A DNA stretch of 64,000 bases, taken from positions 4,384,001 to 4,448,000 of the forward strand of contig OZ244042.1 of the NCBI GenBank assembly GCA_965215015.1. The letters are read 5' to 3'. The stretch is from Candidatus Poribacteria bacterium. GTDB taxonomy: Bacteria; Poribacteria; WGA-4E; PCPOR2b. Position numbers and translations under genes: made by a program. Below the pieces are notes generated by a model. That model saw only the letters and a program-made list of their open reading frames with translations. It did no database searches and was not told the origin of the DNA. Below are positions 32,044 through 47,524 of this stretch, piece after piece; position 1 is the stretch's first letter; each line of letters starts with the position of its first letter.

Positions 32044-33966
32044 TCAGAACCATGTTGTATACAGAGGCCTCTGCAGAATAATGCTCAGTAAGCCCCAATA
32101 AGTGCCAACGATGAAATCCCCCACTACTAGTCCCATGAAAAACGGGACAACCTTCCGATAGCTCGTCGCCCCGCCATGTTTTAAGATCAGCAGCTTTATC
32201 CCCCAGCAGACAAAGAGCGCGAACCAGTAGACATCAATTGTGCCGGAACTAATCCCCAGAATATATCCCGCTGGGTGAAATGGAAACCATATAAAACGCA
32301 TCCGCATCCAACCTATCATGATTGAAAAAATAGCTGAACCACCAATAATATTTACACCTAGAGTATCAGGTTCTTTAGGGTTCTGTAACCACCCACTTAG
32401 GCTATTGCACGCTTGGGTGCCTGCCGCTAACAATTCCCCTGCAGTTGAGGCTCCGTACCGGTAAAGCATGACCGGAAAAATCCAGAATGCCAGGAGAACC
32501 CCAAAAATTAGGGAAAGCATCATCGCCCAAGTGAGTCGTCGGGTGTTGGTGCCGGTTCCTTCAGCGGACTTAAAGGCTTCCAATTGGTGGGGCATGGGAT
32601 GGCTTCGGTTTAACCGATTGAACCAATAAAACAGCGAGAACATAGTTAAATTCGGCGCACCGATTTTGCGTGTTCCAAACGCAGAAATGAGCACCACTTG
32701 TGGGTTCACGAGGACGATTGCGTGTAAGGGAGGCCCCAATTCTGCCCGCATTCGCGTGAGTGCTGTAGCGATTATAAAGTAAAGTCCGAAAAATGTCGGC
32801 ACAAGCCATAGAGACATCCCCAAACTATTGCAGTAGAATGTCAGGGCGATCATTCCACCGATAAGACAGAGCACCGCTGTCCGATAACGCATTGGCTCAT
32901 CAGAATCATCAAGCGTTGATTTTAGGTTAATAACGTTCTTGAAGATTTCCCAAAAATACCGTCGTCCCATGTAGAGTGTCATCACACATAACCCAATCAT
33001 CGCCCCGGTGGCTTGTTCACCAAAGAAAGGATAGCGTGGCAAGGTGTTCCAACCCATCATCGCACCGATTAGTCGCTCCATTTTGCGAAACAGAAAGAAG
33101 AACCAAGTGGAGAAGGTGAGATCTAAAGGTATCAGGAAGGAGAGACCAATAAGAAATGGGTAGAACCGCATTGGCAACGCGCCGATGGCATTCCACGGTT
33201 CTTCTGTGAAAAAGATACCCAGATTGTAGGTAGGCTCCTTGATTGGGATACGGGGAATCTTCGGATATATAAAGCTTATGCCGTTGATGAGACTGATTGC
33301 ACCCGCAACGCTGAAACCTATCCACATGAGCCGATTGCGAAAGAAACCGTGGGTGGGGTTGGTCATTTCTATGGGGATTTGGATAATCGGATAGGCGAGT
33401 CTCTCATGTTCGATCCACTGCTTCCTAAGGATAACATTGAGACAGATTAGCATAAAAAAGAGGACAGAAATCAGGAATGACCATGCAATGGCGGGCCGAA
33501 TCCAGAATCGGTAGAAACCTGTCACCCAGAAGGCAGATTCGCCTTTGTAGAAATATTCGACAGCGGCAGGGTCTCGGACGAGCAGCACATCCGGAAGGTA
33601 TCTGTGAAAGAGATTAGCCCAGTCGTTTGCAGGCGTGGCGTAAAAATAGGCGTGGGGGATAACCCCCATCATACAGACCATGTTGTCGTGGGCGGTGACC
33701 GCTGTAGTTGCGGAGACAGTACTATAAATCATCAGCAGTTCCGCCTGCGAGAACGGCTCCTTCGACATGAACCGTCCACCGATTTTGTTAAACAAAATTA
33801 GAAAAAAAAGGAAAAAAATTGAGAGCTGTGGGAGGGACATGGAGGTCCAGTGGAGCGAGTGCCATATCATCTCCTCAAGTGCCACAAGGTAGAGGCACAG
33901 GGGCATAAGCAGTAATCCAAACAGAATTGCTTTAATTGAGAGGCGGGAGGTTTCGACTTGTTTCAT
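32044..33966 (-). CDS. Multi-TM DUF6785/DUF6784-type membrane protein
   Basis: QWIEHERLAYP, RMRAELG, HPMPHQLE, WFPFHPAGY; tandem paralog of 34304..36253. Confidence 0.78.
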   Translation of the reverse strand: MKQVETSRLSIKAILFGLLLMPLCLYLVALEEMIWHSLHWTSMSLPQLSIFFLFFLILFNKIGGRFMSKEPFSQAELLMIYSTVSATTAVTAHDNMVCMMGVIPHAYFYATPANDWANLFHRYLPDVLLVRDPAAVEYFYKGESAFWVTGFYRFWIRPAIAWSFLISVLFFMLICLNVILRKQWIEHERLAYPIIQIPIEMTNPTHGFFRNRLMWIGFSVAGAISLINGISFIYPKIPRIPIKEPTYNLGIFFTEEPWNAIGALPMRFYPFLIGLSFLIPLDLTFSTWFFFLFRKMERLIGAMMGWNTLPRYPFFGEQATGAMIGLCVMTLYMGRRYFWEIFKNVINLKSTLDDSDEPMRYRTAVLCLIGGMIALTFYCNSLGMSLWLVPTFFGLYFIIATALTRMRAELGPPLHAIVLVNPQVVLISAFGTRKIGAPNLTMFSLFYWFNRLNRSHPMPHQLEAFKSAEGTGTNTRRLTWAMMLSLIFGVLLAFWIFPVMLYRYGASTAGELLAAGTQACNSLSGWLQNPKEPDTLGVNIIGGSAIFSIMIGWMRMRFIWFPFHPAGYILGISSGTIDVYWFALFVCWGIKLLILKHGGATSYRKVVPFFMGLVVGDFIVGTYWGLLSIILQRPLYTTWF

Positions 33967-34082
33967 TTTAAGTCGATGTCCAATTTTCGTTTCGTGGAGG
34001 GGTGTTTTATACTAATTGCCCGCTTGAGGGCAAATGAACTGCTAAATTGATGAATATTTATCTGAAGCAGGCTTAAAGGATT

Positions 34083-34241
34083 AGGATTTACGCACTTCAG
34101 TAGGGAACATATCGGTGTGCCTTACGGACTCCTTATGGAGCCTCCGCTGTAGTTGCCCAATTCATCGGGCGTTGGGAACAGTGTCCAGCGGCGATGAATC
34201 GCCGAACGACAAGGCTTTGAGCATTCAACTGAGTCAGTCCT
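34083..34241. mobile_element. MITE-like element, family C (TIR AGGACTTACGCA)
   Basis: aggatttacgca ... tgagtcagtcct; shares gatgaatcgccga and ttgagc.ttcaactg with 42064-42255. Confidence 0.55.
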
Positions 34242-34303
34242 AAGGATTTTAAAAATAAAAAACATGATGCCTGAAATGTAAAAGTAATCTTCGCCCCTTT
34301 GTC

Positions 34304-36253
34304 CTAAAACCACGTTGTGTACAGGGGCGTTCCGAGGATGATACTCAGCAGCCCCCAATAAGTGCCGACGATGAAATCTCCAACTACCAATCCCATAAAG
34401 AAAGGCAAAATCTTCCGATAGGTTTTCACTCCACCGTGTCTCAGTACCAGTAGTTTTATCAACCAACAGACGAAAAGGGCGAACCAGTAAACGTCGATTG
34501 TGCCGGAGCTGACACCTAGGATATATCCACCCGGGTGGAACGGGAACCATAGAAAACGCATTCGCATCCATGACATCCACATCGAAAAGAGCAGGGACCC
34601 ACCAATAATACTGCCTGCGACCGGATCCGGTGGGCGTGGGTACTGCAACCATCCGCCTAGGCTATTATATGCCTGCCAGCCTGCGCCCAGCAACTCCCCG
34701 GCGGTTGATGCGCCATATTGGTACAGGACAACCGGGAAGATCCAGAATGAGACCAGAAGACCGACAATCAAGGAGATCATCATCGCCCAGAATAGGCGGC
34801 TGGTGCTAGCGTGAGTGCGTTCTGCTGACTTGAACGCTTCCAATTGGTGCGGCATCGGGTGGCTACGGTTGTATCGGTTGAACCAAAAGAGCAGGGAAAA
34901 CATGGTTAGATTGGCTGTGCCGAGTCTCCGCGTCCCAAGGGCTGCAACAAGGATAACTTGTGGATTCACCAGCCGGATCGGGTGCAAGGGGGGACCCAAC
35001 TCCGCTCGCATTCGTGTGAGTGCGGTGGCAATCATAAAATAGAGCGCGAAGAAGAGTGGCACAAGCCATTGGGACATTCCTAAGTGACCGCAGAATATCA
35101 TCAGCGCAATCATGCCGCCAACTAAACAGAGCACCGCAGTGCGATAGCGCATGGGTTCGTTTGAATCGTCAAGCGTAGATTGCAAGCCAATCACCTTCCT
35201 AAAAACTTCAACGAAGTGTCGGCGACCGAGATAGATTGCTGTGACGCATAGCCCAATCATAGCACCGGTGGCTTGTTCGCCAAAGAAGGGATATTGTGGG
35301 ATGGTGCTCCAACCAACCATCGCACCGACTAATCGCTCCATTTTGCGAAATAGGAAGAAGAACCAAGTCGAGAAGGTAAGGTCTAAGGGAATAAGGAACG
35401 AGAGACCAATAAGAAATGGATAAAATCTCAGGGGCAGTGTGCCGATGGCATTCCACGGTTCCTCGTTGAAATAGACACCTAGATCATAATGTGGCTCTTT
35501 TATCGGTATGCGAGGAACGCTCGGATAGAGGAAATTGAGACCGTTGAGAAGGCTTATCACTCCAGCAACGGTGAATCCTATCCACATCATCCGGTTGCGG
35601 AAGAAACCGGAGCGTAAATCGGTCATCTCCAGCGGAATCTGAATAATGGGATAAGCAAGTCGCTCGTTTTCAATCCACTGCTTCCTGAGAATGACGTTGA
35701 TGCAGAGCAGCATGAAAAACAGGACAGCAAGCAGAAAAGACCAACCGATGGCAGGCTTAATCCAGAATCGATAGTAGCCTGTTGCCCAGAAAGAGGATTC
35801 GCCTCTATAGAAATGGTTCACCGCATTGGAATCACGGATAACGAGCAGATCGGGGAGGTGTTTGTGGAAGAGTGCTGCCCACTCATTTTCCGGGGTAGCG
35901 TAGAAAAAGGCGTGTGTAAGGACCCCCATCATGCAGACCATATTGTCGTGCGCGGTGTATGCTGTGGTTGCAGAGAGGGTCGTATAAATCATCAACAATT
36001 CTGCTTGAGAGAACGGATTTCTGGGCAAAAACCGTCCGGCGACCTTGTTGAGGAGAATTAGGAAAAAGAGAAAGAAGATGGAGAGTTGCGGCAGGGACAT
36101 GGAGGTCCAGTGGAGCGAGTGCCATATCATCTCCTCAAGTGCCACTAAATATGCACACAGCGGCATTAACAGCAATCCAAACAGAATTGATTTTATCGAA
36201 ATACGAGAGGCGTCTGGCTGTTTAGCCTCACCATTTTCGTTCAGGTTCATCAC
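34304..36253 (-). CDS. Multi-TM DUF6785/DUF6784-type membrane protein
   Basis: Highly similar to 32044..33966 over the full length. Confidence 0.78.
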   Translation of the reverse strand: MMNLNENGEAKQPDASRISIKSILFGLLLMPLCAYLVALEEMIWHSLHWTSMSLPQLSIFFLFFLILLNKVAGRFLPRNPFSQAELLMIYTTLSATTAYTAHDNMVCMMGVLTHAFFYATPENEWAALFHKHLPDLLVIRDSNAVNHFYRGESSFWATGYYRFWIKPAIGWSFLLAVLFFMLLCINVILRKQWIENERLAYPIIQIPLEMTDLRSGFFRNRMMWIGFTVAGVISLLNGLNFLYPSVPRIPIKEPHYDLGVYFNEEPWNAIGTLPLRFYPFLIGLSFLIPLDLTFSTWFFFLFRKMERLVGAMVGWSTIPQYPFFGEQATGAMIGLCVTAIYLGRRHFVEVFRKVIGLQSTLDDSNEPMRYRTAVLCLVGGMIALMIFCGHLGMSQWLVPLFFALYFMIATALTRMRAELGPPLHPIRLVNPQVILVAALGTRRLGTANLTMFSLLFWFNRYNRSHPMPHQLEAFKSAERTHASTSRLFWAMMISLIVGLLVSFWIFPVVLYQYGASTAGELLGAGWQAYNSLGGWLQYPRPPDPVAGSIIGGSLLFSMWMSWMRMRFLWFPFHPGGYILGVSSGTIDVYWFALFVCWLIKLLVLRHGGVKTYRKILPFFMGLVVGDFIVGTYWGLLSIILGTPLYTTWF

Positions 36254-36547: not shown

Positions 36548-37645
36548 CTAGAGTTGTTTAAGTTTTCCCCATAGCGTTGTTAGCTTGTCTTGCGGAGAGA
36601 CAGACAGTGACCCCGGCGTGTACTCGTAAATTGATGGAAACGATTGTACCCCAGCCCGGCCGCCCGGCACATAAATCTTGCCTCCTGCTACGGTAGCAGG
36701 AACCCCGGCTCGCCCTCGCGGTAGTGGAACGGCTTCATCGATGACCCATTCGTCGAGGGCTGGGTTGTAAACATCAACCCTTTTAAGAACTTCATCATTG
36801 CTACCGTCGCTAAATGTGGACAGGCCGCCGATTGTGAAGATTCGACCGCTCAAAGTTGTAATTCCAAAGAGGGCTTTTTGTATTGGCATCGGTTTTTTGG
36901 CTTCCCATGTATCTGTCGCCGGATCGTAGACTTCGACAACATTCAGGACCTCTTCAAGATTCCATCCGCCGATTGCATAAACCTTTCCCTGAAACGCAGC
37001 GGCTCCAAGACCGCCTCTTGGTGTTGGCATATCCCTTTTCTGATCAAAGGTATCTTCTTTCGGATCATACTCAAAAACAGTGCCGTACACCTCTTTCTGT
37101 GCGCCTCTATCCCAACCGCCAATCACATAGATTTTGTCGCCGACCACAGCTGCAGAAGTTGCCGCGAGTGCTTTGGGTAACTTCGCTAGTTTTTTCCATG
37201 CGCCTCGCTCTCCTGCTTCTGGGTTGAATACTTCTACTGCATCAAGTACCTTGCCGCCACGGCTTTGGGCACCTCCAAACACATAAATCATACCATCGAA
37301 CGTAACAGCTACCATGCGTGCCCTTGTTGTTGGCATACTCCTCTTCGGTGCCCATGTATCGGTCACTGGGTCATACCCTTGGACGCGGTCTAGTGTCATG
37401 TCACCGGGGTTCGGAATGTGCGGTGCTCGGTTGACTTCGATGCCACCGATGACGTAGACCTCGCCGCCGACGCTGGCAGCGGCGACACAGCACCTTGACG
37501 ACTCTGGCATGTTTTCTCTTCTTTCCCATTTGTCATCTGCTGCCAAACTACTACCGGTGATGGCTAACAGACCAATCAGGGTCAAGCCTGCGAAAAGGCA
37601 AATGAGATTGGGTTTTATGTTATGTGTTAGTTTATCAATTAACAT
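36548..37645 (-). CDS. Secreted Kelch-repeat beta-propeller protein with C-terminal 'KLTTLWG' motif
   Basis: Six YVIGG/YVFGG...YDP..DTW repeats; signal peptide; ends SVSPQDKLTTLWGKLKQL. Confidence 0.9.
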   Translation of the reverse strand: MLIDKLTHNIKPNLICLFAGLTLIGLLAITGSSLAADDKWERRENMPESSRCCVAAASVGGEVYVIGGIEVNRAPHIPNPGDMTLDRVQGYDPVTDTWAPKRSMPTTRARMVAVTFDGMIYVFGGAQSRGGKVLDAVEVFNPEAGERGAWKKLAKLPKALAATSAAVVGDKIYVIGGWDRGAQKEVYGTVFEYDPKEDTFDQKRDMPTPRGGLGAAAFQGKVYAIGGWNLEEVLNVVEVYDPATDTWEAKKPMPIQKALFGITTLSGRIFTIGGLSTFSDGSNDEVLKRVDVYNPALDEWVIDEAVPLPRGRAGVPATVAGGKIYVPGGRAGVQSFPSIYEYTPGSLSVSPQDKLTTLWGKLKQL

Positions 37646-37746
37646 ATACTATTCTCCTTTTTCAGGGCTTAGACTGGGCCGGGCACAATCGTATGCCTGT
37701 TTCCCAGCATCAACCGTATCCGCACTGCTAGGTCAAGGGGATTTAG

Positions 37747-38919
37747 CTAATTTTTCGATAGTGCACTACGCTTGACCTCGCCAAAGATTGTGAAATGCTT
37801 CTGTTGTGGTTCGACAGAACGAAGCTCGAAGACGGGATTCCATCTTGGATGGGTATCGTTGCCATCAGGGTTATTACTGAGATTTCTTAGCTCACCGCCG
37901 TTGGCATCCATTACATAAATCTCTCGTTTCCCATCTCGTTTGGACTCAAACAAAATTCTTCTGCCTTTGGCGGACCAGACGGCTCCATTATCGCCCTTTG
38001 GATGGTTTGTAAGATTGACCTTGTTATTCCCATCGGGATCCATGCGGTAGATTTCCCAGTTGCCATCACGCTGGGTTTCAAAGGCAATGCCGCCTGTTGA
38101 CCATTCCGCTCGTCTGTCAGTTTTCTCGTGGTTAGTCAACCTTGTCAAATTGTTTCCGTCAACATCCATGACATAGATTTCCGAGTTGCCATCACGCTTT
38201 GACTGAAAGACGATCTGCATACCATCAGGTGAGAAACGTGCCCACTCGTCCGGTGCAATATGGTTGGTAAGATTGACTTGATTTTTACCGGCATTTCTTC
38301 CTTCTGCATCGGCAATAAAGATATCAAATTGAGATTTGTTATCGATCAAATCACGATTGCTCTCAAACACAATTTTTGTACCATCAGGGGACCAGGAGCC
38401 CTTCTGGTCCTTGTTGACGCCTTCACCTTCCGCATTTGTGATATTAACCAACGCTCCGGGTTTGTTACCTTTTTCCAAGGTCAGAAAGCCAACATCCCAA
38501 CTTGCGGCTTGCGGCAATGTCTGAGCATACACAAGGATGCGTGGATCGCCTTCCGGGGCGAATTGAGGTTCATTCAATTTCACACCTAGCGGTTTTCCAG
38601 TCAAGTCGTTGTCTTTTGGTCTTTGTGGGTCTGTCATATCGATGACACGCAAATCGAAATTTTCCCCACCTCGAGTATTTGCGCTGTAGACGATGTACTT
38701 ACCATCGGGAGACCAGTCAGGGGTTAGCGTTTTCGCCTTATGATCTGTGACTTTTGTAACCTCACCGTTATCGTATACCACACAGACTTGGGGGCCGTCA
38801 CCTTGGTCACAAAGAAAAGACGCCATCGGCACCTGCGCTGATGTGTTGTTGACGCTCAGGGAAACAAGCAGAGCCAATAGAATGCCTCCCCAAAATATTA
38901 TAGAATTTTTACCAAACAT
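37747..38919 (-). CDS. Secreted TolB-like (PD40) beta-propeller protein
   Basis: Repeated WSPDG..IVFES.RDG..EIY.M..DG; start MFGKN after an AGGAG RBS; ends SVEPQQKHFTIFGEVK. Confidence 0.88.
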   Translation of the reverse strand: MFGKNSIIFWGGILLALLVSLSVNNTSAQVPMASFLCDQGDGPQVCVVYDNGEVTKVTDHKAKTLTPDWSPDGKYIVYSANTRGGENFDLRVIDMTDPQRPKDNDLTGKPLGVKLNEPQFAPEGDPRILVYAQTLPQAASWDVGFLTLEKGNKPGALVNITNAEGEGVNKDQKGSWSPDGTKIVFESNRDLIDNKSQFDIFIADAEGRNAGKNQVNLTNHIAPDEWARFSPDGMQIVFQSKRDGNSEIYVMDVDGNNLTRLTNHEKTDRRAEWSTGGIAFETQRDGNWEIYRMDPDGNNKVNLTNHPKGDNGAVWSAKGRRILFESKRDGKREIYVMDANGGELRNLSNNPDGNDTHPRWNPVFELRSVEPQQKHFTIFGEVKRSALSKN

Positions 38920-39121
38920 TGTTTTCTCCTTTCGATTAGATTGGAAGTTTACAGTCTGGAGGAAGAAAATTGAACTGCAAAGAAATGGTAGTGGAAGGAG
39001 GACGGGGCCCCGATGTGAAAAGTGTTGACTATAGCGGCAAATGCGATAGGTTTGGGGAGGGAACAGGGAGAAGGCTGTTTTCCCCGTCCCCTTTTCTCCT
39101 TCCAAAAGCTCCAACGTGCTT

Positions 39122-40549
39122 TTATTTTATCACTACCATTCGTCGAGTCTCGGAGAAGTCGTCAGCCAGAAGCTGATAGAAATAAACCCCACTTGCCACG
39201 GATTGTCCGGTGTCGTCTTTACCATCCCAATAGGCTGCACGTTGTCGGTTCATGTAAGCCCCTGCCACCTGCCTTCCAACATCGATAGACCGGATGAACT
39301 CGCCCTTGACATTGTAGATTCGCACGGTTACAGTAGTGGCTTCGGCGAGATAATAGGGTATCCACGTTTCAGGATTGAAAGGATTGGGGAAATTTTGCAT
39401 TAAGCTCGTGCGTTTGATGTCTCCAAGAACCGTGAAGTATTTGCTTTGTGGCTCAACTGAACGAAGCTCAAAAACTGGATTCCATCGGGCATCTGTGTCA
39501 CTCTCAGGATGATTAGTGAGATTCTTCAGACCGGCACCGTCGGCTTCCATGAAGTATATCTCTCGATTCCCATCCCGTTTGGACTCAAATAAGATTCGTC
39601 TCCCTTTAGGTGACCAGATAGGCTTCTGATCACTTTTGGGGTCATTGGTTAAATTAATTTGATTGTTTCCATCGGGGTCCGACTTATAAATTTCCCAATT
39701 ACCATCGCGTTGGCTTTCAAAGACGATACCGCCGGGGGACCAGTCCGCGTTTCGATCAGTCTTCTCATTTTCAGTGATCCGCGTCAGGTTCTCCCCATCA
39801 ATGCCTACCGTATAGATTTCCCAGTTGCCATCTCGCTTCGATTCAAAAACGACCGCTGTACCATCAGGCGACCAACGCGCCCGTCGATCTGCCGCCTCGT
39901 GATCGCTAAGATTTATCTGATTTTTCCCGATACTTCGTTTTTCAACGTCAGCGATGAAAATATCGAACTGGGATCTATCTTTCACTTTCTTGCGCTCGCT
40001 TTCAAAAACAATCTTGGTTCCATCTGGGGCCCAAGAGGCTTCCAGATCTTGTCCGGCCGCTTCGCCATCTGCATTTGTGATGTTAACCAGGTCATCCACT
40101 TTACCTCTTGCATCTAACGTTAGGAGTCCTATATCCCAACCGTTGGCGTTTGGTAGTCCAGCGGCGTAAATAATAATCCGCGAATCTCCGGCAGGATCCC
40201 ATCGAGGACCAGACAGTTTGAGTCCCGGTCCGTCAGGTGGGCCTGTCAGGTTTGACTGTTTCGGTTTCTGAGGGTCGGTGAGATCAACGATAAAGATATC
40301 AAAATTCTCCTCACCGCGCACATTGGTATCGAAAACGATGAAACTACCATCAGGCGACCACTCGGGAGTGAACACCTTGGATTTGTTCTTTGTGAGTTGC
40401 TTAATCTCGCCATTATCATACAAAAGATGAACCTCATCGTCACCGGAGCGGTCCGAGATAAAAGATGCCATAGGCACCTGCGCGTATGCCGAACCGATGA
40501 ACAAGAGGATGAAGCTGCCCAATAGGGTGACAATACCTTTGCGTGACAT
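39122..40549 (-). CDS. Secreted TolB-like (PD40) protein with C-terminal FlgD-Ig/T9SS-like domain
   Basis: PD40 repeats; LMQNFPNPFNPETWIPY...YWDGKDDTGQSVASGVYFYQL. Confidence 0.9.
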   Translation of the reverse strand: MSRKGIVTLLGSFILLFIGSAYAQVPMASFISDRSGDDEVHLLYDNGEIKQLTKNKSKVFTPEWSPDGSFIVFDTNVRGEENFDIFIVDLTDPQKPKQSNLTGPPDGPGLKLSGPRWDPAGDSRIIIYAAGLPNANGWDIGLLTLDARGKVDDLVNITNADGEAAGQDLEASWAPDGTKIVFESERKKVKDRSQFDIFIADVEKRSIGKNQINLSDHEAADRRARWSPDGTAVVFESKRDGNWEIYTVGIDGENLTRITENEKTDRNADWSPGGIVFESQRDGNWEIYKSDPDGNNQINLTNDPKSDQKPIWSPKGRRILFESKRDGNREIYFMEADGAGLKNLTNHPESDTDARWNPVFELRSVEPQSKYFTVLGDIKRTSLMQNFPNPFNPETWIPYYLAEATTVTVRIYNVKGEFIRSIDVGRQVAGAYMNRQRAAYWDGKDDTGQSVASGVYFYQLLADDFSETRRMVVIK

Positions 40550-40597
40550 TGTTAGACTCCTTTCCAGGTGCTCCTACCCCATCCTTTGCAAGCCCTC

Positions 40598-42019
40598 CTA
40601 TTTCATCACTACCATTCGTCGGGTCTCGGAGAAGTCGTCAGCCAGAAGCTGATAGAAATAAACCCCACTTGCCACGGACTGTCCTGTATCATCTTTACCA
40701 TCCCAGTAGACTGCACGCTGCTGGTTCATGTAAGCCCCTGCAGCCTGTCTTCCAACATCAATAGACCGGATGAACTCGCCCTTGACGTTGTAGATTCGCA
40801 CGGTTACAGTAGCGGCTTCGGCAAGATAGTAGGGTATCCACGTTTCAGGATTGAAAGGATTGGGGAAATTTTGCATCAAGCTCGTGCGTTTGATGTCTCC
40901 AAGAGTCGTAAAGTATTTGCTTTGTGGCTCAACTGAACGAAGCTCAAACTGAGGATTCCATCGGGCACTTTTGTCATTACCGGGATCATTAGTGAGATTC
41001 TTCAGCGCACCACCATGTATCATGTATATCTCTCGATTTTTATCCCGTCTAGATTCAAACAAGATCCGCCTCCCTTTACTAGACCAAATAGGGTTCTGAT
41101 CGCTACCAGGGTCATTGCTGAGATTGACCTGATTGTTTCCATCGGGGTCCGACTTATAAATCTCCCAATTACCATCGCGTTTGCTTTGAAAGACGATGCC
41201 GCCGGGGGACCATTCAGCTCTTCGGTCATCCTTATCATTTTCAGTGATCCGCGTCAGGTTCTCCCCATCAATGCCTACCGTATAGATTTCCCAGTTGCCA
41301 TCTCGCTTCGATTCAAAAACGACCGCTGTACCATCAGGCGACCAGCGTGCCCGTTGATCCGGTGCCTCATGATTGCTAAGATTTATCTGATTTTTTCCGA
41401 TAGTCCGTTTTTCTGCGTCCGCAATAAAGATATCCATCTGGGCCCTATCGTTGATTTTGTTACGCTCGCTCTCAAAAACAATTTTGGTTCCGTCAGGAGA
41501 CCATGACCCTTCCTGGTCTTGGCCAACGCCTTCACCATCTGCATTTGTTATATTCACCAGGGCACCCGCTTTGCCCCTTGCATCTATCGTCAGGATTCCC
41601 AGATCCCAATTGTCAGCGTTTGGAAATCCAACGGAGTAGAGAAGAATCCGTGGATCTCCGGCAGGGGCCCATCGGGGTTCAGACAGTTTGACTCCCGGTC
41701 CATCGGGCGGGCCTGTCAGGTTTGACTGTTTCGGTTTTTGAGGGTCAGTGAGATCAACGATAAAGATATCAAAATTCTCGCCACCGCGCACATTGGCATC
41801 GAAAACGATGAAACTACCATCAGGCGACCACTCGGGGGTGAACACCTTGGATTTGTTCTTTGTGAGTTGCTTAATCTCGCCACTATCATACAAAAGATGA
41901 ACCTCATCGTCGCCGGAGCGGTCCGAGATAAAAGATGCCATAGGCACCTGCGCGTATGCCGAACCGATAAACAGGAGAACGAAGCTGCCCAATAGGGTAA
42001 TAATACCTTGACGTAACAT
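40598..42019 (-). CDS. Secreted TolB-like (PD40) protein with C-terminal FlgD-Ig/T9SS-like domain (tandem duplicate)
   Basis: Close paralog of 39122..40549. Confidence 0.9.
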   Translation of the reverse strand: MLRQGIITLLGSFVLLFIGSAYAQVPMASFISDRSGDDEVHLLYDSGEIKQLTKNKSKVFTPEWSPDGSFIVFDANVRGGENFDIFIVDLTDPQKPKQSNLTGPPDGPGVKLSEPRWAPAGDPRILLYSVGFPNADNWDLGILTIDARGKAGALVNITNADGEGVGQDQEGSWSPDGTKIVFESERNKINDRAQMDIFIADAEKRTIGKNQINLSNHEAPDQRARWSPDGTAVVFESKRDGNWEIYTVGIDGENLTRITENDKDDRRAEWSPGGIVFQSKRDGNWEIYKSDPDGNNQVNLSNDPGSDQNPIWSSKGRRILFESRRDKNREIYMIHGGALKNLTNDPGNDKSARWNPQFELRSVEPQSKYFTTLGDIKRTSLMQNFPNPFNPETWIPYYLAEAATVTVRIYNVKGEFIRSIDVGRQAAGAYMNQQRAVYWDGKDDTGQSVASGVYFYQLLADDFSETRRMVVMK

Positions 42020-42063
42020 TGTTAGCTCCTTTCCAAAAATGATAAGCTCCTTTCAACAAAGAT

Positions 42064-42255
42064 AAGACTTACGCATTTCAGTGGTGAACAACGATGGTGT
42101 TCCCGTGCTTTGAATTCCAATCTTATCGGGGAATTGTGTTCTCCGGAGATGAATCGCCGAGGATACCATGACTATAGCTCAATAATCATGGTTCAACCAG
42201 GGGCATTGCGCGTCTTTTCTGGTGTTGGCCTTGAGCGTTCAACTGCGTAAGTCCT
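42064..42255. mobile_element. MITE-like element, family C
   Basis: aagacttacgca (42064) and tgcgtaagtcct (42244-42255) inverted ends. Confidence 0.6.
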
Positions 42256-42349
42256 AAAAGATAAGAGATTTATGGGAAATGATGGTGAAAGTGTAATGGA
42301 AGGCAACAATAGATTTGAAACTCCATTACACCTCACCACACAAATGGTT

Positions 42350-43051
42350 TTACTGAGTAACTGCTGGTGTTCCACCACTTTTTAGTATGCCCCAAGTGGT
42401 TGCAAGTTTCCCTTTGCTCTCAACAGCACGTGGATCTTTTCTAGGAAACTCGGTGGGCCAAGGGTCGTCATCCGGTTGCTCGTCTTGGTCTTGGCTGAGC
42501 AGCATCTGATCAAGATTATGCGGCTGTTGTCTCGGCTGTGAACGTATTACATGGAGACCGCGTTCCTTTGCTTCCCATTCGACAACCGTCAGGGGTGGAA
42601 CGCCTTGGCTGAGCCACTTGTAAATACCAGCATCGAAAACGTCACGCCAATTGCCCAATCCACGACCCATAAAATCCGGGTCCGCGGTATGCTCTGTGGT
42701 ACCGATTTGGTTATCAAATTGTAACCAAAAGGCGTCAGTACCGGTGTTGCCATCGCTTTTGCCTCTTGCCCAGATGTAGTATGTGCCTTCGTCGCACCAG
42801 AACTCAACTTGCCAATACGCTGTTGGATCTGCAACCGGTGGGTTCATAGCACCACCGATAAATTGAAATGCAAGGCCATTGGACGCGTCGGCATCTCGCG
42901 CAAATGCAGTATTTTCTGGCGATGTTTCGCCATAATCTCTAATCGTCTCTGCGCTGATGACAACCTCGGTAATCGCAGCAAAGCTGCTAGAAGCTATGCC
43001 GACAACACAAAGTGCCATAAGCATACAGATTAATAAACTTGGTGCTCTCAT
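42350..43051 (-). CDS. Secreted protein with CBM-like beta-sandwich and C-terminal 'KLATTWG' motif
   Basis: Signal peptide from MRAPS (AGGAGG RBS); GTYYIWARG..DAFWLQFD; ends AVESKGKLATTWGILK. Confidence 0.75.
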   Translation of the reverse strand: MRAPSLLICMLMALCVVGIASSSFAAITEVVISAETIRDYGETSPENTAFARDADASNGLAFQFIGGAMNPPVADPTAYWQVEFWCDEGTYYIWARGKSDGNTGTDAFWLQFDNQIGTTEHTADPDFMGRGLGNWRDVFDAGIYKWLSQGVPPLTVVEWEAKERGLHVIRSQPRQQPHNLDQMLLSQDQDEQPDDDPWPTEFPRKDPRAVESKGKLATTWGILKSGGTPAVTQ

Positions 43052-43609
43052 TATTAAGTAACCTCCTAATAGGCTATTAAACATTTGGTATATAAAAATA
43101 GGTTCTGTTGACATTTTGACAAATTGAACCAATCCTGAATACGCCTTGAGGCAATTTTGAACAACCGCCTCGATTTTGGGCGGATTGCCCAATGATTACA
43201 GCGTTTGCCGAATTGGTGACAGCCAAATGCCAACACACCTTACCTCAACAACATGAGTTTAAGGGAATGCGTTGGCATTCCCTTAAGGGATTCGCTTCAG
43301 AAACAGATAAAACATCACATTTACTATTCTATAGCATTATAATAGAGACTGTCAAGACTTTTTTACCATAATTATTTTTTTAAGGAGAGGAACGATAATA
43401 AGTATACCATTGTTTGTCAAATACCGATAAACATTGGCGCGGGCATCAGGGGTCGCCCGAATAAATCGGTATTTATCTCTGTTCATTCCAAATGGCAAAT
43501 AGTTCAATGTTACCATTAATAAAAAATTGTACGCTAAATCAACAAGCTTAGAGGACGATGGCTAAAACCCAAGCTACCAAAGGGCTTTTGGCAGGTGGAC
43601 GCTTATAAA

Positions 43610-43643
43610 ATAATTCCATAGAATAGTAATTCTATGGAATTAT
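43610..43643. other. loxP-like recombination site (13-8-13)
   Basis: ATAATTCCATAGA-ATAGTAAT-TCTATGGAATTAT; perfect inverted arms, 9/13 identical to the loxP arm ATAACTTCGTATA. Confidence 0.65.
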
Positions 43644-43685
43644 TAGGGGTTATGCACCCGGTCCTGGAAGAGTAATCATGAATGA

Positions 43686-44037
43686 ATCAGCGACGAAACG
43701 GAGAAATTAGTTAAAGCTAGCATCGCAGCGAGCACCGTCGAGACCTATCACCTCGCAATGCAACAGTTGGAAATCTGGTTGGCTGGACGCTTCTTGAGCG
43801 ATAGCCTACTTGCAAATTACATCATGGGGTTATATCAAGATGGACGCTAGCGACAATCAGTAAAATTGTCGCTGTGGTCAAATGGACAGTAAAAAATCAC
43901 GGCGTGGGGATCCCCTTTGAGATCGCGGAGAAGACACTTGCTAGCATTCGACGCAAAGGCAAAGATCGAGCGCGGGGTTAGGTAGATGGCATGATATGGA
44001 GCGAGTCTGTGCGTTTGCCGAAGCGGATAATACCGTA
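43686..44037 (+). pseudogene. Cre-like tyrosine recombinase, decayed N-terminal (core-binding) domain
   Basis: Manual translation across frameshifts: ISDETEKLVKASIAASTVETYHLAMQQLEIWLAGRFLSDSLLANYIMGLYQDGR / ATISKIVAVVKW...AEKTLASIRRKGKDRARG*VDGMIW / MERVCAFAEAD; cut before the catalytic domain by a repeat. Confidence 0.7.
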
Positions 44038-44039
44038 AG

Positions 44040-44129
44040 TTGCTTTGAATCCCGATCTTATCGGGGAGGCATCAGGTCAAGGACTCTCGGAACGGAGATT
44101 AGCGCAATCTGTCAAATGTCAACCGAACC
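44040..44129 (+). repeat. About 90-bp dispersed repeat ending in the family-B TIR
   Basis: Inverted homolog at 20172-20260; partial copy at 42106-42131; opposing TIR at 43101. Confidence 0.7.
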
Positions 44130-44289
44130 TTGTTATTGCACTCAACTAACCGGATTCAGATGGAAATTCCTTGAGTTTGTTATTATTTTTTGATACACTA
44201 CAACAAAGTTGAAATAAGTAAGGACCAATCTATATGTTCACCCTATCAGGGGGTATACACAGATACACGCCGACTTTAAGGAGGTTTGA

Positions 44290-44883
44290 ATGTCAGAAGC
44301 AGTCAGTAACGCGAGAGTCGAAGATTACAAAGGTATCTTGCAACAATATTGTCAGAAACGAGCTTTAGAGAATTTAACCTATGAAACGGATCAACAGGGG
44401 CCTCTCAATGAACCGAGTTGGATTGTCACTGTTAAGTATGGAGAAACAACCTACACCACACCAGCACCGATTCGTGGATCTAAACGCTTCGCGGAAAAGA
44501 TGGCAGCCAAACAGATTCTGGAACAAATAGAATCCCACCAAGAAGCGTTTCTAGTAGGTTGTTCTGAGTCCCGATCGCATCGGAGCGATTCCGTTGAAAC
44601 AACCGAAACGCAGGAGCAGTCAACAGAAGTATCGTCCCCAGAACCCCTCTATGTACCGACTGAGCTTGTTACTACAGTACTTGGCATTGCCAACCACCGG
44701 TTGGCTGGACTGCAGCGCGGCACACGCTACCGCGACTCAGTCGAATCCAAGCAAAGCAACCAAGCATTTGCACAGAACCTAGCAGAGCTCACCATGCAGA
44801 TTGTGCGTGAAATTGCGAATGCTGCAGAAGCTTCCAGTGTCAAATTTGGTGATACATCATCACAACCAGAATCTGATGAATGA
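44290..44883 (+). CDS. Stand-alone double-stranded RNA-binding domain (dsRBD) protein
   Basis: DYKGILQQYCQK...Y....GP...P.W.VTV...GSKRFAEKMAAKQIL dsRBD signature; no RNase III catalytic domain. Confidence 0.75.
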   Translation: MSEAVSNARVEDYKGILQQYCQKRALENLTYETDQQGPLNEPSWIVTVKYGETTYTTPAPIRGSKRFAEKMAAKQILEQIESHQEAFLVGCSESRSHRSDSVETTETQEQSTEVSSPEPLYVPTELVTTVLGIANHRLAGLQRGTRYRDSVESKQSNQAFAQNLAELTMQIVREIANAAEASSVKFGDTSSQPESDE

Positions 44884-45015
44884 CAAGTGATACTAAATCT
44901 GCCTCCAAATGTTACAAAGGCGGCCTTGTGACACGATAATCGAAAGCCCATATAAAAATTCACGCCTCATTCGTCACGTTTCACACGATGCCACAGGGCA
45001 ATCAGGCATATAGTA

Positions 45016-45035
45016 GTAGGCATACTCCGTATGCC
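45016..45035 (+). repeat. GTAG-type REP palindrome GTAGGCATACTCCGTATGCC
   Basis: Copies at about 10150, 45016, 54918 and inverted at 20391. Confidence 0.75.
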
Positions 45036-45427
45036 GTAACCTCTCGTAGCCATAGAGCCTACCCACGATTCATCGGGGTTGCCTAACCGGTGATCTCCGC
45101 TGCGTAATTTCTATAACAGATTCAATTCCCCTACGCTATGCCATTATAGACTTGACAAAAAGCAAGATTGTCCTTAAAATGACTTGGGCTTTCGTATGAA
45201 AGACGGTACAGGCATAGGAAGCTCAATAAAAAAAAACAAGATAGTCTGTCGAGAAACAAAGACAAAGATAAGAATAGAAACTTGAAGGGCATCAATCTAT
45301 ATCAGGACGGGACTCTGATTGTTATTAGTCTTGCTGACCACCACTTTGTTGGGTTTGTTGGATGACGTGATGCTTCCAAAGACCAACGGATACCTCCAAT
45401 TGCACTCCTCATAGAAAGGAATAAATA

Positions 45428-47524
45428 ATGTCTAATAACCCGAAGCATACTAACCGACTCATCAACGAAACGAGTCCCTACCTCCTGCAACATGCACACA
45501 ATCCTGTTGATTGGTATCCGTGGGGTGAGGAAGCAATCGCGCAAGCCACGCAGCGAGATAAGCCCATCCTGTTGAGCATTGGCTATGCTGCCTGCCACTG
45601 GTGCCATGTCATGGAGCACGAATCCTTCGAGAATGAGCAGATTGCCGCGGTCATGAATGAGCATTTCATTAACATCAAGGTTGATCGTGAAGAACGCCCT
45701 GACTTGGATGAAATTTACATGAATGCTGTCCAAATGCTTACGGGGCAAGGGGGTTGGCCCATGACCATGTTTCTGACACCGGATCTAAAGCCGTTCTACG
45801 GTGGCACCTACTTTCCCCCCGATAACCGCTACGGGCGTCCGGGGTTTCCACGGGTGTTGCTTGGTGTTGCAGAGGCGTATAGGGAGCGTCCTGACGCGGT
45901 GGGAGAACAGGCAGATCAGATTATCGCTAACTTGAATCAGTTGTCTGAAATAGAAGGGCATGGTCATCAGTTGACAATTGATATGTTGGATCGGGCATAT
46001 CAGGATTATCTATCACGATTCGATCACCATGACGGTGGATTCGGGAGTGCGCCTAAGTTCCCACCGAGTATGGGACTCTCGCTGTTATTGCGTCACTGGC
46101 ATCGCACAGGTAACCCCAACGCGCTTAACATGGTCGAAGTAACACTGGAAAAGATGGCGCGCGGTGGGATGTATGATCAGCTTGGCGGAGGATTCCATCG
46201 TTACTCAGTTGATGAGAGATGGCTCGTTCCCCACTTCGAGAAGATGCTCTACGACAACGCTTTGTTGAGTGTTGCTTATTTGGAAGCATATCAGGCAACG
46301 GGGAAGGTTTTTTATCGTCAAATCGCCACGGAAACGCTTGATTACGTTTTGTGTGAAATGTACGATGCGGAAAAAGGGGGCTTTTACTCAACACAAGATG
46401 CGGACAGTGAAGGCGTTGAGGGCAAATTCTTCGTTTGGATGCCAGACGAGGTAGAAGGTCTCCTTGGGGAGGAGAAAGCCAAGATCTTTTGCGAATATTA
46501 TGATATTACTGAGCATGGCAATTTTGAACACAAAAACATCCTGCATGTCCGAACACCGCCAGATCTATTTGCCAGAAAACTGGGTATGGATTTGGGTGAT
46601 ATAGAGGATATCCTCACCGAAGGGAGACAGAAACTCTTTGGAGCCCGTGAGGAACGGATTAAGCCCGGCTTGGATGACAAGATTCTCACAAGTTGGAACG
46701 GTTTAATGATTCGGAGCATGGCAATGGGGTATCAGGTCCTCGGTGATGAACGTTATCAGGAAGCCGCAGAAAAATCTGCGAGATTCATTTTATCTGAGCT
46801 CTCCCAAGATAACGGACTGTTGCTCCGTACACACCGTGCGGGCAAAAGCCACCTGAATGCTTACCTTGAGGATTATTCCTACTTCGTTGCCGGTTTAATC
46901 AATCTCTACGAGGCAACCTTCGCCGTTGAGTGGCTGAAAGAGGCTGAACGGTTGAATCAGATCATGATTGATCAATTTTGGGATGAAGCAAATGGCAGCT
47001 TCTTCTTTACAAGCAAAAACCACGAAACTCTCATCGTCCGATCAAAACCGGGGTATGATGGTGCAACCCCCGCCGGTGTGTCGATAGCTATCCATAATTT
47101 GTTGAGACTTGACAAACTCCTCAACTGTCCAGACTTCCGGGAAAAGGTGGAAACTACTCTCGATGTCTATTATCATCAAATCGAGCATTCGCCCAGCGGA
47201 TCGGCGCAGATGCTATGCGAGCTGGATTTTCTACTGTCCACACCCAAAGAAATTGCGATTGCCGGTCAGCGGGAGAACGAGGACACCCAAGCGGCGTTGG
47301 CAGCTATCCATAGCCGCTTCGTGCCAAACAAAGTGCTCGCTTTGGCTAGCGATGGAGAAAATGTCAGCGATTCGATTCCACTCCTTGAAGGTAAAACACA
47401 GATTGATGGTAAGGCGACAATCTATGTATGTGAGAACTACACTTGCCAAGCCCCGACGACAGAGGTGGAAGAATTGGCGGAGCTGCTTCAGTTAGGGGGA
47501 CTGCCCGAGGCGTCCAACCTATAG
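45428..47524 (+). CDS. Thioredoxin-domain protein YyaL/SSP411 (DUF255)
   Basis: [48 protein letters not shown]. Confidence 0.93.

Follow-up and report, generated by a model that had tools for sequence, protein, structure and literature searches.

A perfect palindrome beside a broken gene in the chromosome of a Candidatus Poribacteria bacterium is probably one half of a DNA inversion switch. The palindrome begins at position 43610 of a 64,000-nucleotide stretch (GenBank assembly GCA_965215015.1, contig OZ244042.1, positions 4,384,001 to 4,448,000 of the forward strand; this whole stretch is the window, and positions below count from its first letter), and it lies just upstream of the relic of a tyrosine recombinase gene. 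We propose, at a probability of roughly 0.75, that Poribacteria harbour a family of Cre-like invertases with their invertons and that the palindrome is the gene-proximal site of a ~300-bp invertible promoter cassette. A Cre-like invertase would recombine two inverted 34-bp sites that share a 6-bp crossover spacer, the segment between them would flip, and one promoter would then read either into the recombinase gene or outward, over the left site, to a divergent gene. The promoter of the window would have been turned from the dead recombinase gene to the gene of a 233-amino-acid (aa) secreted protein.

Read directly from the letters, 43610-43643 is a perfect 34-bp palindrome, ATAATTCCATAGA-ATAGTAAT-TCTATGGAATTAT, exactly as given in an earlier account of this DNA by a model that saw the letters and their open reading frames (the sequence-only reading), and the complementarity continues without mismatch to a 16-4-16 structure of 36 bp at 43609-43644. 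Across the 64 kb no other perfect short-range inverted repeat has arms exceeding 12 nt; the runner-up, at 43259-43286, has 12-nt arms and belongs to the same module, at a distance of 320 bp. By simple arithmetic the chance of a perfect 16-nt short-loop hairpin in 64 kb would be ~2e-4, and the TAGAA-N6-TTCTA core occurs once in the window against 0.03 expected. The earlier count of 9 of 13 arm positions identical to loxP holds, on comparison by eye, against the lox 3' repeat of the phage P1 record (TATACGAAGTTAT). The proposed 13-8-13 division fared less well: the 34-bp lox geometry stands, but judged by comparison with the homologous loci the 34 bp are partitioned as 14-6-14. No tRNA genes or Rfam families were found in the 64-kb window, so there is neither a tRNA-type integration site nor a known RNA in it.

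The relic begins with an ATG 35 bp past the palindrome and is coded across three frames as far as ~44037, in keeping with the frameshifted reading frame that had been placed ~40 bp past the site. With an intact 303-aa homolog (P0001) as query, tblastn recovers it from the window in three pieces (Table 1) at a joint E of 1e-44. The gene is broken in several ways: an indel at the 5' end has set the ATG in another frame than a conserved ISDETE motif, frameshifts lie near 43848 and near 43990-44005, an in-frame TAG stands at 43979-43981, and all sequence beyond ~residue 136 is lost, the entire catalytic domain included; DNA homology to the homologs stops at ~44036 (blastn). The local gene is thus as dead as had been claimed. 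No further recombinase copy was found in the 64-kb window at E <0.1 (tblastn, three query proteins), and the separate relic pieces, which are too short for such models, gave no Pfam or NCBIfam match even at E up to 10. Among the 80 related loci described below, no ortholog of the window was found; only the C-terminal sorting domains of neighbouring proteins matched.

A search for tyrosine recombinase homologs of the relic peptide, a check proposed with the sequence-only reading, returned 36 homologous proteins for a 54-aa piece at 74-87% identity, 33 of which are 299-334 aa long and carry PF00589; in the four homologs tested with Pfam, this Phage_integrase domain scored E 2.7e-17 to 1.8e-13 in each. 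The resemblance to Cre that had been read from the broken peptide is borne out by the intact homologs, whose nearest solved relative is P1 Cre by both sequence and fold. All 17 Protein Data Bank sequences reached by P0001 with phmmer at E <=0.01 are Cre or its engineered derivative Tre (best 1.7e-12), and a profile of 33 members (alignment A1) scores Cre at 2e-11 among solved structures, the next family being archaeal XerA at 2e-5. By BLASTP a homolog is 24% identical to P1 Cre over 270 columns (E 7e-15), and its R150, K173, H250, R253, W276 and Y285 align with Cre R173, K201, H289, R292, W315 and Y324, six catalytic residues that are invariant or nearly so in the A1 alignment. Cre has a tryptophan (W315) at the position where most of its relatives have histidine. 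An AlphaFold model from 33 close sequences was discarded at a mean predicted local distance difference test (pLDDT) score of 45.6, and one from a 56-sequence alignment was used at 73.2; Foldseek ranks 1-31 for the latter are all Cre or Tre (E 2.6e-11, template modelling score 0.51), followed by XerA at 3e-8, IntI at 2e-7 and then XerH, XerD and lambda Int. On this evidence the intact homologs are members of the tyrosine recombinase superfamily and the window copy is the non-functional relic of a member. The label Cre-like is justified, at a distance, with the fold support coming from a medium-confidence model.

Two other assignments were tried and rejected. Against dimer resolution of the Xer/dif type, the NCBIfam XerA, XerC and XerD models give 55-67 bits, far below their cut-offs of 220-335, and a genome holds several copies of the gene, each with its own paired sites. 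An integron reading is disfavoured by the rank of IntI well under Cre in Foldseek; no cassette array was noticed, though without a formal search for attC sites.

One genome per GTDB species was scanned for relatives, 147 of which were found and 80 loci kept (numbered L001 on); 78 of these carry the title Candidatus Poribacteria, and in several genomes there are two or more loci. Among the loci kept, the family is almost confined to Candidatus Poribacteria metagenome-assembled genomes (MAGs). The other two, L045 and L068, come from MAGs titled Flavobacteriales and Nitrosopumilus and may be binning errors or transfers. A relic-like clade of 26 loci (L001-L023, L030, L037 and L054) is set apart at identities of at least 65%, with the other 54 loci at 48-62%.

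Intact loci of the clade carry two sites where the window had been thought to carry one. For 23 mapped loci the 900 bp upstream of the gene were searched for an inverted partner, and both sites were written out in each. The right site lies 41-55 bp before the ATG, the left site 281-298 bp further upstream, inverted, and both are divided 14-6-14. The order is the same throughout: divergent gene, ~95-bp conserved flank, left site, ~290-bp segment with an A-tract and predicted promoter at its right end, right site, ribosome-binding site and recombinase gene. The right site consists of an inner arm of consensus ATAATTATGTAGAA, a 6-bp spacer (for example TAGCAT) and an outer arm TTC....GAATT.T, and the left site of an outer arm of consensus ATAAAGCGTTACAT, its spacer and an inner arm TTCTATGGT.TTGA. 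The palindrome predicted beside intact homologs has its counterpart there: a related inverted repeat precedes their genes at the corresponding position, which is conserved although the repeat itself is imperfect. In all 23 loci the two spacers of a pair are exact reverse complements, through seven spacer variants, compared with 104 of 506 non-self pairings. Identity between the left and right sites is typically limited to the spacer and the adjoining TTCTA, 11 nt in all, and spacer plus adjoining identity is what a tyrosine recombinase requires for strand exchange. The same 19-nt repeat is present in L017, whose segment contains an IS66-like transposase gene (682-2130). Where two loci share a genome their spacers differ in six of eight pairs.

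Paired inverted sites with a recombinase gene nearby, by which an inverton is recognized, were thus found at 23 of 23 loci and, in the window, as 43307-43340 together with 43610-43643. The central inference of the sequence-only reading, that the palindrome is the target of an uncharacterized Cre-like family, holds, with the amendment that it is not a lone lox but one of an inverted pair flanking a predicted promoter. A plain lox-type site, at which a mobile element is excised, integrated or resolved from dimers, would suit the 34-bp geometry, the 9 of 13 arm match and the Cre-like family, as well as the recurrence of the module several times per genome beside unrelated genes with insertion sequence (IS) elements nearby. 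We consider it very unlikely all the same: the window yielded no partner in direct repeat, every mapped locus has an inverted partner with a reverse-complement spacer (direct partners were not searched there), and the surroundings showed no sign of a phage or plasmid. In a plasmid collection, tblastn gave one weak match (E 0.5) for one relic piece and none for another.

What distinguishes the window from the intact loci is the orientation of the segment between the sites. When window positions 42000-46000 were compared with the loci by blastn, 43240-43334 matched the left flank of the homologs forward, 43686-44036 matched the recombinase gene forward, and 43322-43633 matched the 300 bp that precede the homolog genes, but solely in reverse. 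Global alignment gives the same picture, the reverse complement of the interior (43327-43623) aligning better in all 23 loci at a mean identity of 0.74 versus 0.60, and the flanks aligning better forward (left 21 of 23, right 23 of 23). The points at which orientation switches fall inside both sites. Hence the window is probably the flipped product of an inverton, its locus a fossil and its switch locked unless a paralog acts in trans.

The inversion also accounts for the perfection of the palindrome, on which the sequence-only reading had placed weight. The palindrome is perfect because the inversion brought the inner arm of the distal site up to the outer arm on the gene side, and the two are identical at this locus; the site restored in silico would be imperfect, like those of the homologs, and perfection is therefore a by-product of inversion and not evidence of selection. 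A tract of 36 bp could in any case readily stay free of mutation by chance. Action in trans by a paralog is plausible because paralogous loci share arms, the outer arm of the window (TTCTATGGAATTAT) having the same letters as that of L018.

A second comparison involves two orthologous loci, L022 and L054, which share the same 302-aa recombinase and the same right neighbour of 435/436 aa. L022 2747-2947 corresponds to L054 2936-2735 on the reverse strand, with forward-matching flanks on both sides, and as read from these assemblies this is a second, independent natural flip. In L022 an IS with a DDE transposase (1713-2746) splits the left site exactly at its core and has apparently duplicated 5-6 bp. 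Both orientations therefore occur between loci and between orthologous loci of different genomes. It might be objected that the palindrome is a mere hairpin, a terminator or operator by a pseudogene, and that the difference in orientation is an artefact of assembly or alignment, given that the perfect 16-4-16 could fold in RNA and that, of the two flipped loci, L022 belongs to a short-read MAG. This is the least probable of the explanations weighed here, with next to no chance of being right. No T-run follows the palindrome and a terminator scan did not call it, the homolog repeat keeps its position despite being imperfect, and forward-matching flanks bound the inversion on both sides in two independent cases, where a repeat of 11-20 nt would be too short to mislead an assembler in the absence of real heterogeneity.

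The segment carries a predicted promoter whose orientation follows the flip. In 25 of the 26 clade loci (all but L022) a conserved A-tract precedes TTGACA and, after an 18-nt gap, TAGAAT (in L054 TACAAT after a 17-nt gap), with the ribosome-binding site and start codon ~40 nt after TAGAAT. The TAGAAT of intact loci sits in the imperfect inverted repeat that is homologous to the window palindrome, and TTGACA and TAGAA are invariant in the segment alignment (A3). Of the 80 loci, 24 match a regular expression for A-tract plus promoter on the plus strand, 82-98 nt ahead of the start codon, and L022 alone matches it on the minus strand. L018 escapes the pattern with a different A-tract, its TTGACA being visible in the alignment, and L043 and L066 have the pattern at other positions. 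In the window the corresponding promoter faces left (Table 1), is the top promoter-like site in the scanned region 42900-44300 and has a -10 box made of the last 5 nt of the inner arm and the first base of the spacer. The TTGAC block of a weaker site upstream of it is conserved in the segment alignment. At the palindrome itself a weak promoter-like site has formed that faces the relic (43596-43624, plus strand; TGGACG-17-TAGAAT, 9/12).

Turned leftward, the promoter points at the gene of the 233-aa protein with a leader of ~270 nt. In the scan of 42900-44300 there was no terminator-like site on the minus strand left of 43574, so none lies between the flipped promoter and this gene. The protein has a hydrophobic, signal-peptide-like N-terminus and no Pfam domain; its homologs, also of 233 aa, reach 91% identity, and some are fused to leucine-rich repeat (LRR) or cohesin domains. 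We take it that the adjacent recombinase presumably catalyses the flip, that the promoter of the segment is presumably active, that flips are presumably frequent enough for phase variation and that the flipped state would express the left gene.

Table 1 Features of the inversion module in the window and palindromes of distant family members (positions in the window unless a locus is named).
Feature	Position	Strand	Sequence or remark
Divergent left neighbour, 233 aa, secreted-type (predicted)	42350-43051	-	AGGAGG before ATG 43051
Conserved left flank outside segment	43240-43306	.	Forward blastn matches to homologs; includes 12-4-12 palindrome 43259-43286
Partner (distal) site, inverted	43307-43340	.	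20 nt, 90% complementary to 43610-43629
Outer-left arm of partner site	43307-43320		ATAAAACATCACAT; resembles homolog consensus ATAAAGCGTTACAT
Spacer of partner site	43321-43326		TTACTA, reverse complement of TAGTAA
Inner arm of partner site	43327-43340		TTCTATAGCATTAT; carries -10 box on minus strand
Sigma-70-type promoter (predicted), faces left	43355-43326	-	TTGACA-18-TAGAAT, 11/12 consensus positions
Second, weaker promoter-like site	43420-43392	-	TTGACA-17-TATCGT, 10/12; ~65 bp upstream of main promoter
Invertible segment, 297 bp inner arm to inner arm	43327-43623	-	Opposite to 23/23 intact loci
Gene-proximal recombination site	43610-43643	.	Homologous site precedes 23 intact genes
Inner arm of gene-proximal site	43610-43623		ATAATTCCATAGAA
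6-bp spacer of gene-proximal site	43624-43629		TAGTAA
Outer arm of gene-proximal site	43630-43643		TTCTATGGAATTAT
Cre-like tyrosine recombinase relic	43679-44037	+	N-terminal domain only, ~residues 1-136 of ~303
Relic piece, P0001 aa 7-64	43674-43847		84% identity (tblastn)
Relic piece, P0001 aa 67-118	43850-44005		77% identity (tblastn)
Relic piece, P0001 aa 116-139	43987-44058		42% identity (tblastn)
Short dispersed repeat	44038-44069	+	Starts exactly at end of relic homology; second copy 42106-42132
Palindrome of distant member L035	L035 497-532		15-6-15
Palindrome of distant member L051	L051 2909-2940		13-6-13
Palindrome of distant member L056	L056 2922-2945		9-6-9
Palindrome of distant member L065	L065 2938-2961		9-6-9

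The strongest competing explanation is that the inversions, though genuine and site-specific, are rare evolutionary events and no sign of functioning phase variation, and that the site pair and promoter serve mainly the expression and autoregulation of the recombinase, which would bind over its own -10/+1 region and have its true targets elsewhere. Such an arrangement would fit the location of the site, which overlaps the -10 box and the likely transcription start as is typical of an operator, and it would fit the distribution of orientations, in that the promoter faces the recombinase in all 25 clade loci whose recombinase is intact and whose left site is unbroken, and both flipped cases are broken switches, the window by its dead recombinase and L022 by its IS-split left site. 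We nevertheless regard it as unlikely. Autoregulation needs no inverted partner ~290 bp away with an identical spacer through seven variants, two independent inversions break exactly at the sites, and the constant presence of a divergent surface-protein gene would be left unexplained.

Several observations besides the skewed orientations weigh against a working promoter inverton and temper our preference for it. The orientations were compared only across loci and genomes, in consensus assemblies, and every one of the 25 clade loci with the promoter beside the gene has an intact recombinase gene, so flips may be uncommon or heavily biased, or they may show in consensus assemblies only once fixed. 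The flipped promoter of L022 faces the IS and not a surface gene. The 23 of 23 spacer matches come from related loci (orthologs and paralogs) and amount to ~6 independent co-changes. The architecture is also specific to the clade: the 54 loci at 48-62% identity have no clear partner site within 3 kb and lack the promoter motif at the expected place, 52 of them having no match at all. The promoter is a consensus match and the signal peptides are heuristic predictions. Finally, the left neighbours are heterogeneous, and three of them are di-haem oxidoreductases of periplasmic type that are not adhesin-like.

Those neighbours are nonetheless constant in their arrangement. The nearest credible left gene is on the opposite strand in all 22 loci that could be judged (the 23 mapped loci minus L009, which is too short), and its product mostly has a signal-peptide-like N-terminus, as judged from a simple rule on hydrophobic runs. 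Of the 22 proteins, 21 were scanned with Pfam; that of L008, nearly identical to that of L007, was not. Eight loci have an LRR protein with or without Big_12, FlgD_ig or Por_Secre_tail (the tail of the type IX secretion system), two have a Big_1/invasin protein, one a cadherin and one an LDL-receptor class B protein with dockerin; di-haem oxidoreductase lipoproteins account for three, YtkA-like lipoproteins for two and DUF5683 for one. The remaining four fall below curated Pfam cut-offs, three without a match and L021 with sub-threshold coiled-coil or membrane-protein matches only. The LRR gene lies behind a 123-aa fragment in L018 and behind an IS in L001, where a DDE_Tnp_1 transposase (1438-2442) stands between it and the switch. 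As annotated, the left neighbours would thus be mostly surface or secreted proteins.

Other features of the window lie close to the module. The dispersed repeat that adjoins the relic is ~30 nt long and includes a small hairpin (TCCCGAT...ATCGGGGA); its two copies in the window form a direct repeat around the left gene, the switch and the relic, and further copies occur in L024, L001, L015, L017 and L008. The palindrome in the left flank (43259-43286) is kept in homologs as GGAATGC-GTTG-GCATTCC. There 88.9% of alignment cells are paired, versus 33-52% when the pairing is slid, and three pairs show two-sided changes; with 48-50 of 500 shuffles equalling the observed values the support is modest, and RNAalifold did not recover the hairpin. 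It may serve as a leader hairpin or bind a protein. Left of the switch, at 36548-42019 (minus strand) and 32044-36253, runs a series of paralogous secreted-type genes that includes three PD40 beta-propeller paralogs (two scoring a FlgD_ig tail), a Kelch-repeat protein and two DUF6785/DUF6784 paralogs. Directly to the right of the relic, 44290-44883 (plus strand) codes for 197 aa that include a double-stranded RNA-binding motif (dsrm, E 4.5e-10); this protein was not found beside the homologs. In some more distant members of the family (~55-58% identity) palindromes of other kinds precede the start codon by ~30 bp (Table 1). All have 6-nt spacers, neither A-tract nor TTGACA accompanies them, and they may represent separate site families put to another use.

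If the promoter inverton is accepted, a more specific reading suggests itself, which we hold at somewhat less than even odds: Poribacteria may keep insulated pairs of Cre-like invertases and sites in which one promoter is shared by the invertase's own gene and a divergent gene of a eukaryote-like or surface protein (LRR, cadherin, LDL-receptor repeats, Ig-like), forming a self-committing phase switch. A flip would turn on a host-interaction protein and at the same time turn off the enzyme able to flip it back, and reversal would be possible only via leaky expression or paralogs. Different spacers, as in the six same-genome pairs that differ, would stop cross-reaction between paralogs at the crossover step. 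The window would then be a switch fixed with the surface gene on after loss of its recombinase.

The closest known enzyme is Cre of phage P1, and other Cre-like recombinases (Dre, Vika, Nigri and Panto) have been mined. The Poribacteria system shares with Cre/loxP the aligned catalytic R-K-H-R-W-Y, including the Cre-type tryptophan, and a 34-bp site beside the gene with inverted arms and an asymmetric core whose six central base pairs vary. It differs in an enzyme that is only 24% identical and shorter (~303 versus 343 aa), in a degenerate outer-left arm, in a -10 box inside the site and in its host, the chromosome of a sponge symbiont instead of a phage or plasmid. Whereas the P1 record has a single lox ~420 bp from cre, here an inverted chromosomal pair ~290 bp apart would flip a promoter. 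Hence, although the enzyme is Cre-like and the site has the geometry of loxP, the system would behave as a classical tyrosine recombinase promoter switch.

The best known of these is the fim switch of Escherichia coli, in which fimS, an invertible promoter of ~300 bp with short inverted repeats, is controlled by the adjacent FimB and FimE and in turn controls a surface structure; its repeats are short (9 bp), accessory proteins are needed and the promoter drives only the fimbrial gene. The Poribacteria module resembles it as a ~300-bp invertible promoter element by a tyrosine recombinase gene, and it departs from it in having full 34-bp lox-like sites, a Cre-like enzyme and, in the common state, a promoter that would drive the recombinase gene. 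Weinacht et al. reportedly described in 2004 tyrosine recombinase invertons of Bacteroides fragilis that act on outer surface proteins. Such switches are alike in having tyrosine recombinase genes by invertible promoters that control outer-surface proteins in host-associated bacteria, and they belong to another phylum and another recombinase clade. In the main text of a large inverton survey Poribacteria and sponge each occur 0 times (PMC11602134). In the literature searched, whose coverage leaves out most subscription journals, we found no report of invertons or tyrosine recombinases in Poribacteria or sponge symbionts, of phase variation in Poribacteria, of Cre-like invertons, or of tyrosine recombinase invertible promoters with LRR proteins. 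New relative to the classical switches would be an inner arm of a lox-like site that doubles as the -10 box, a promoter that drives the recombinase in the common state, and the setting in an uncultivated phylum of sponge symbionts with eukaryote-like surface-protein cargo.

The inverton reading accounts for a seemingly orphan perfect palindrome by a pseudogene. For recombinase engineering it offers about two dozen Cre-like enzymes with natural 34-bp site pairs and natural spacer variants; the sites are usually the hard part to find, and the natural inversion products here provide sequence-level evidence of the position of exchange. Eukaryote-like surface proteins are thought to mediate host interaction in symbionts. 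If the inverton reading is true, it would be the first indication found that uncultivated sponge symbionts place their eukaryote-like surface proteins under the control of DNA inversion.

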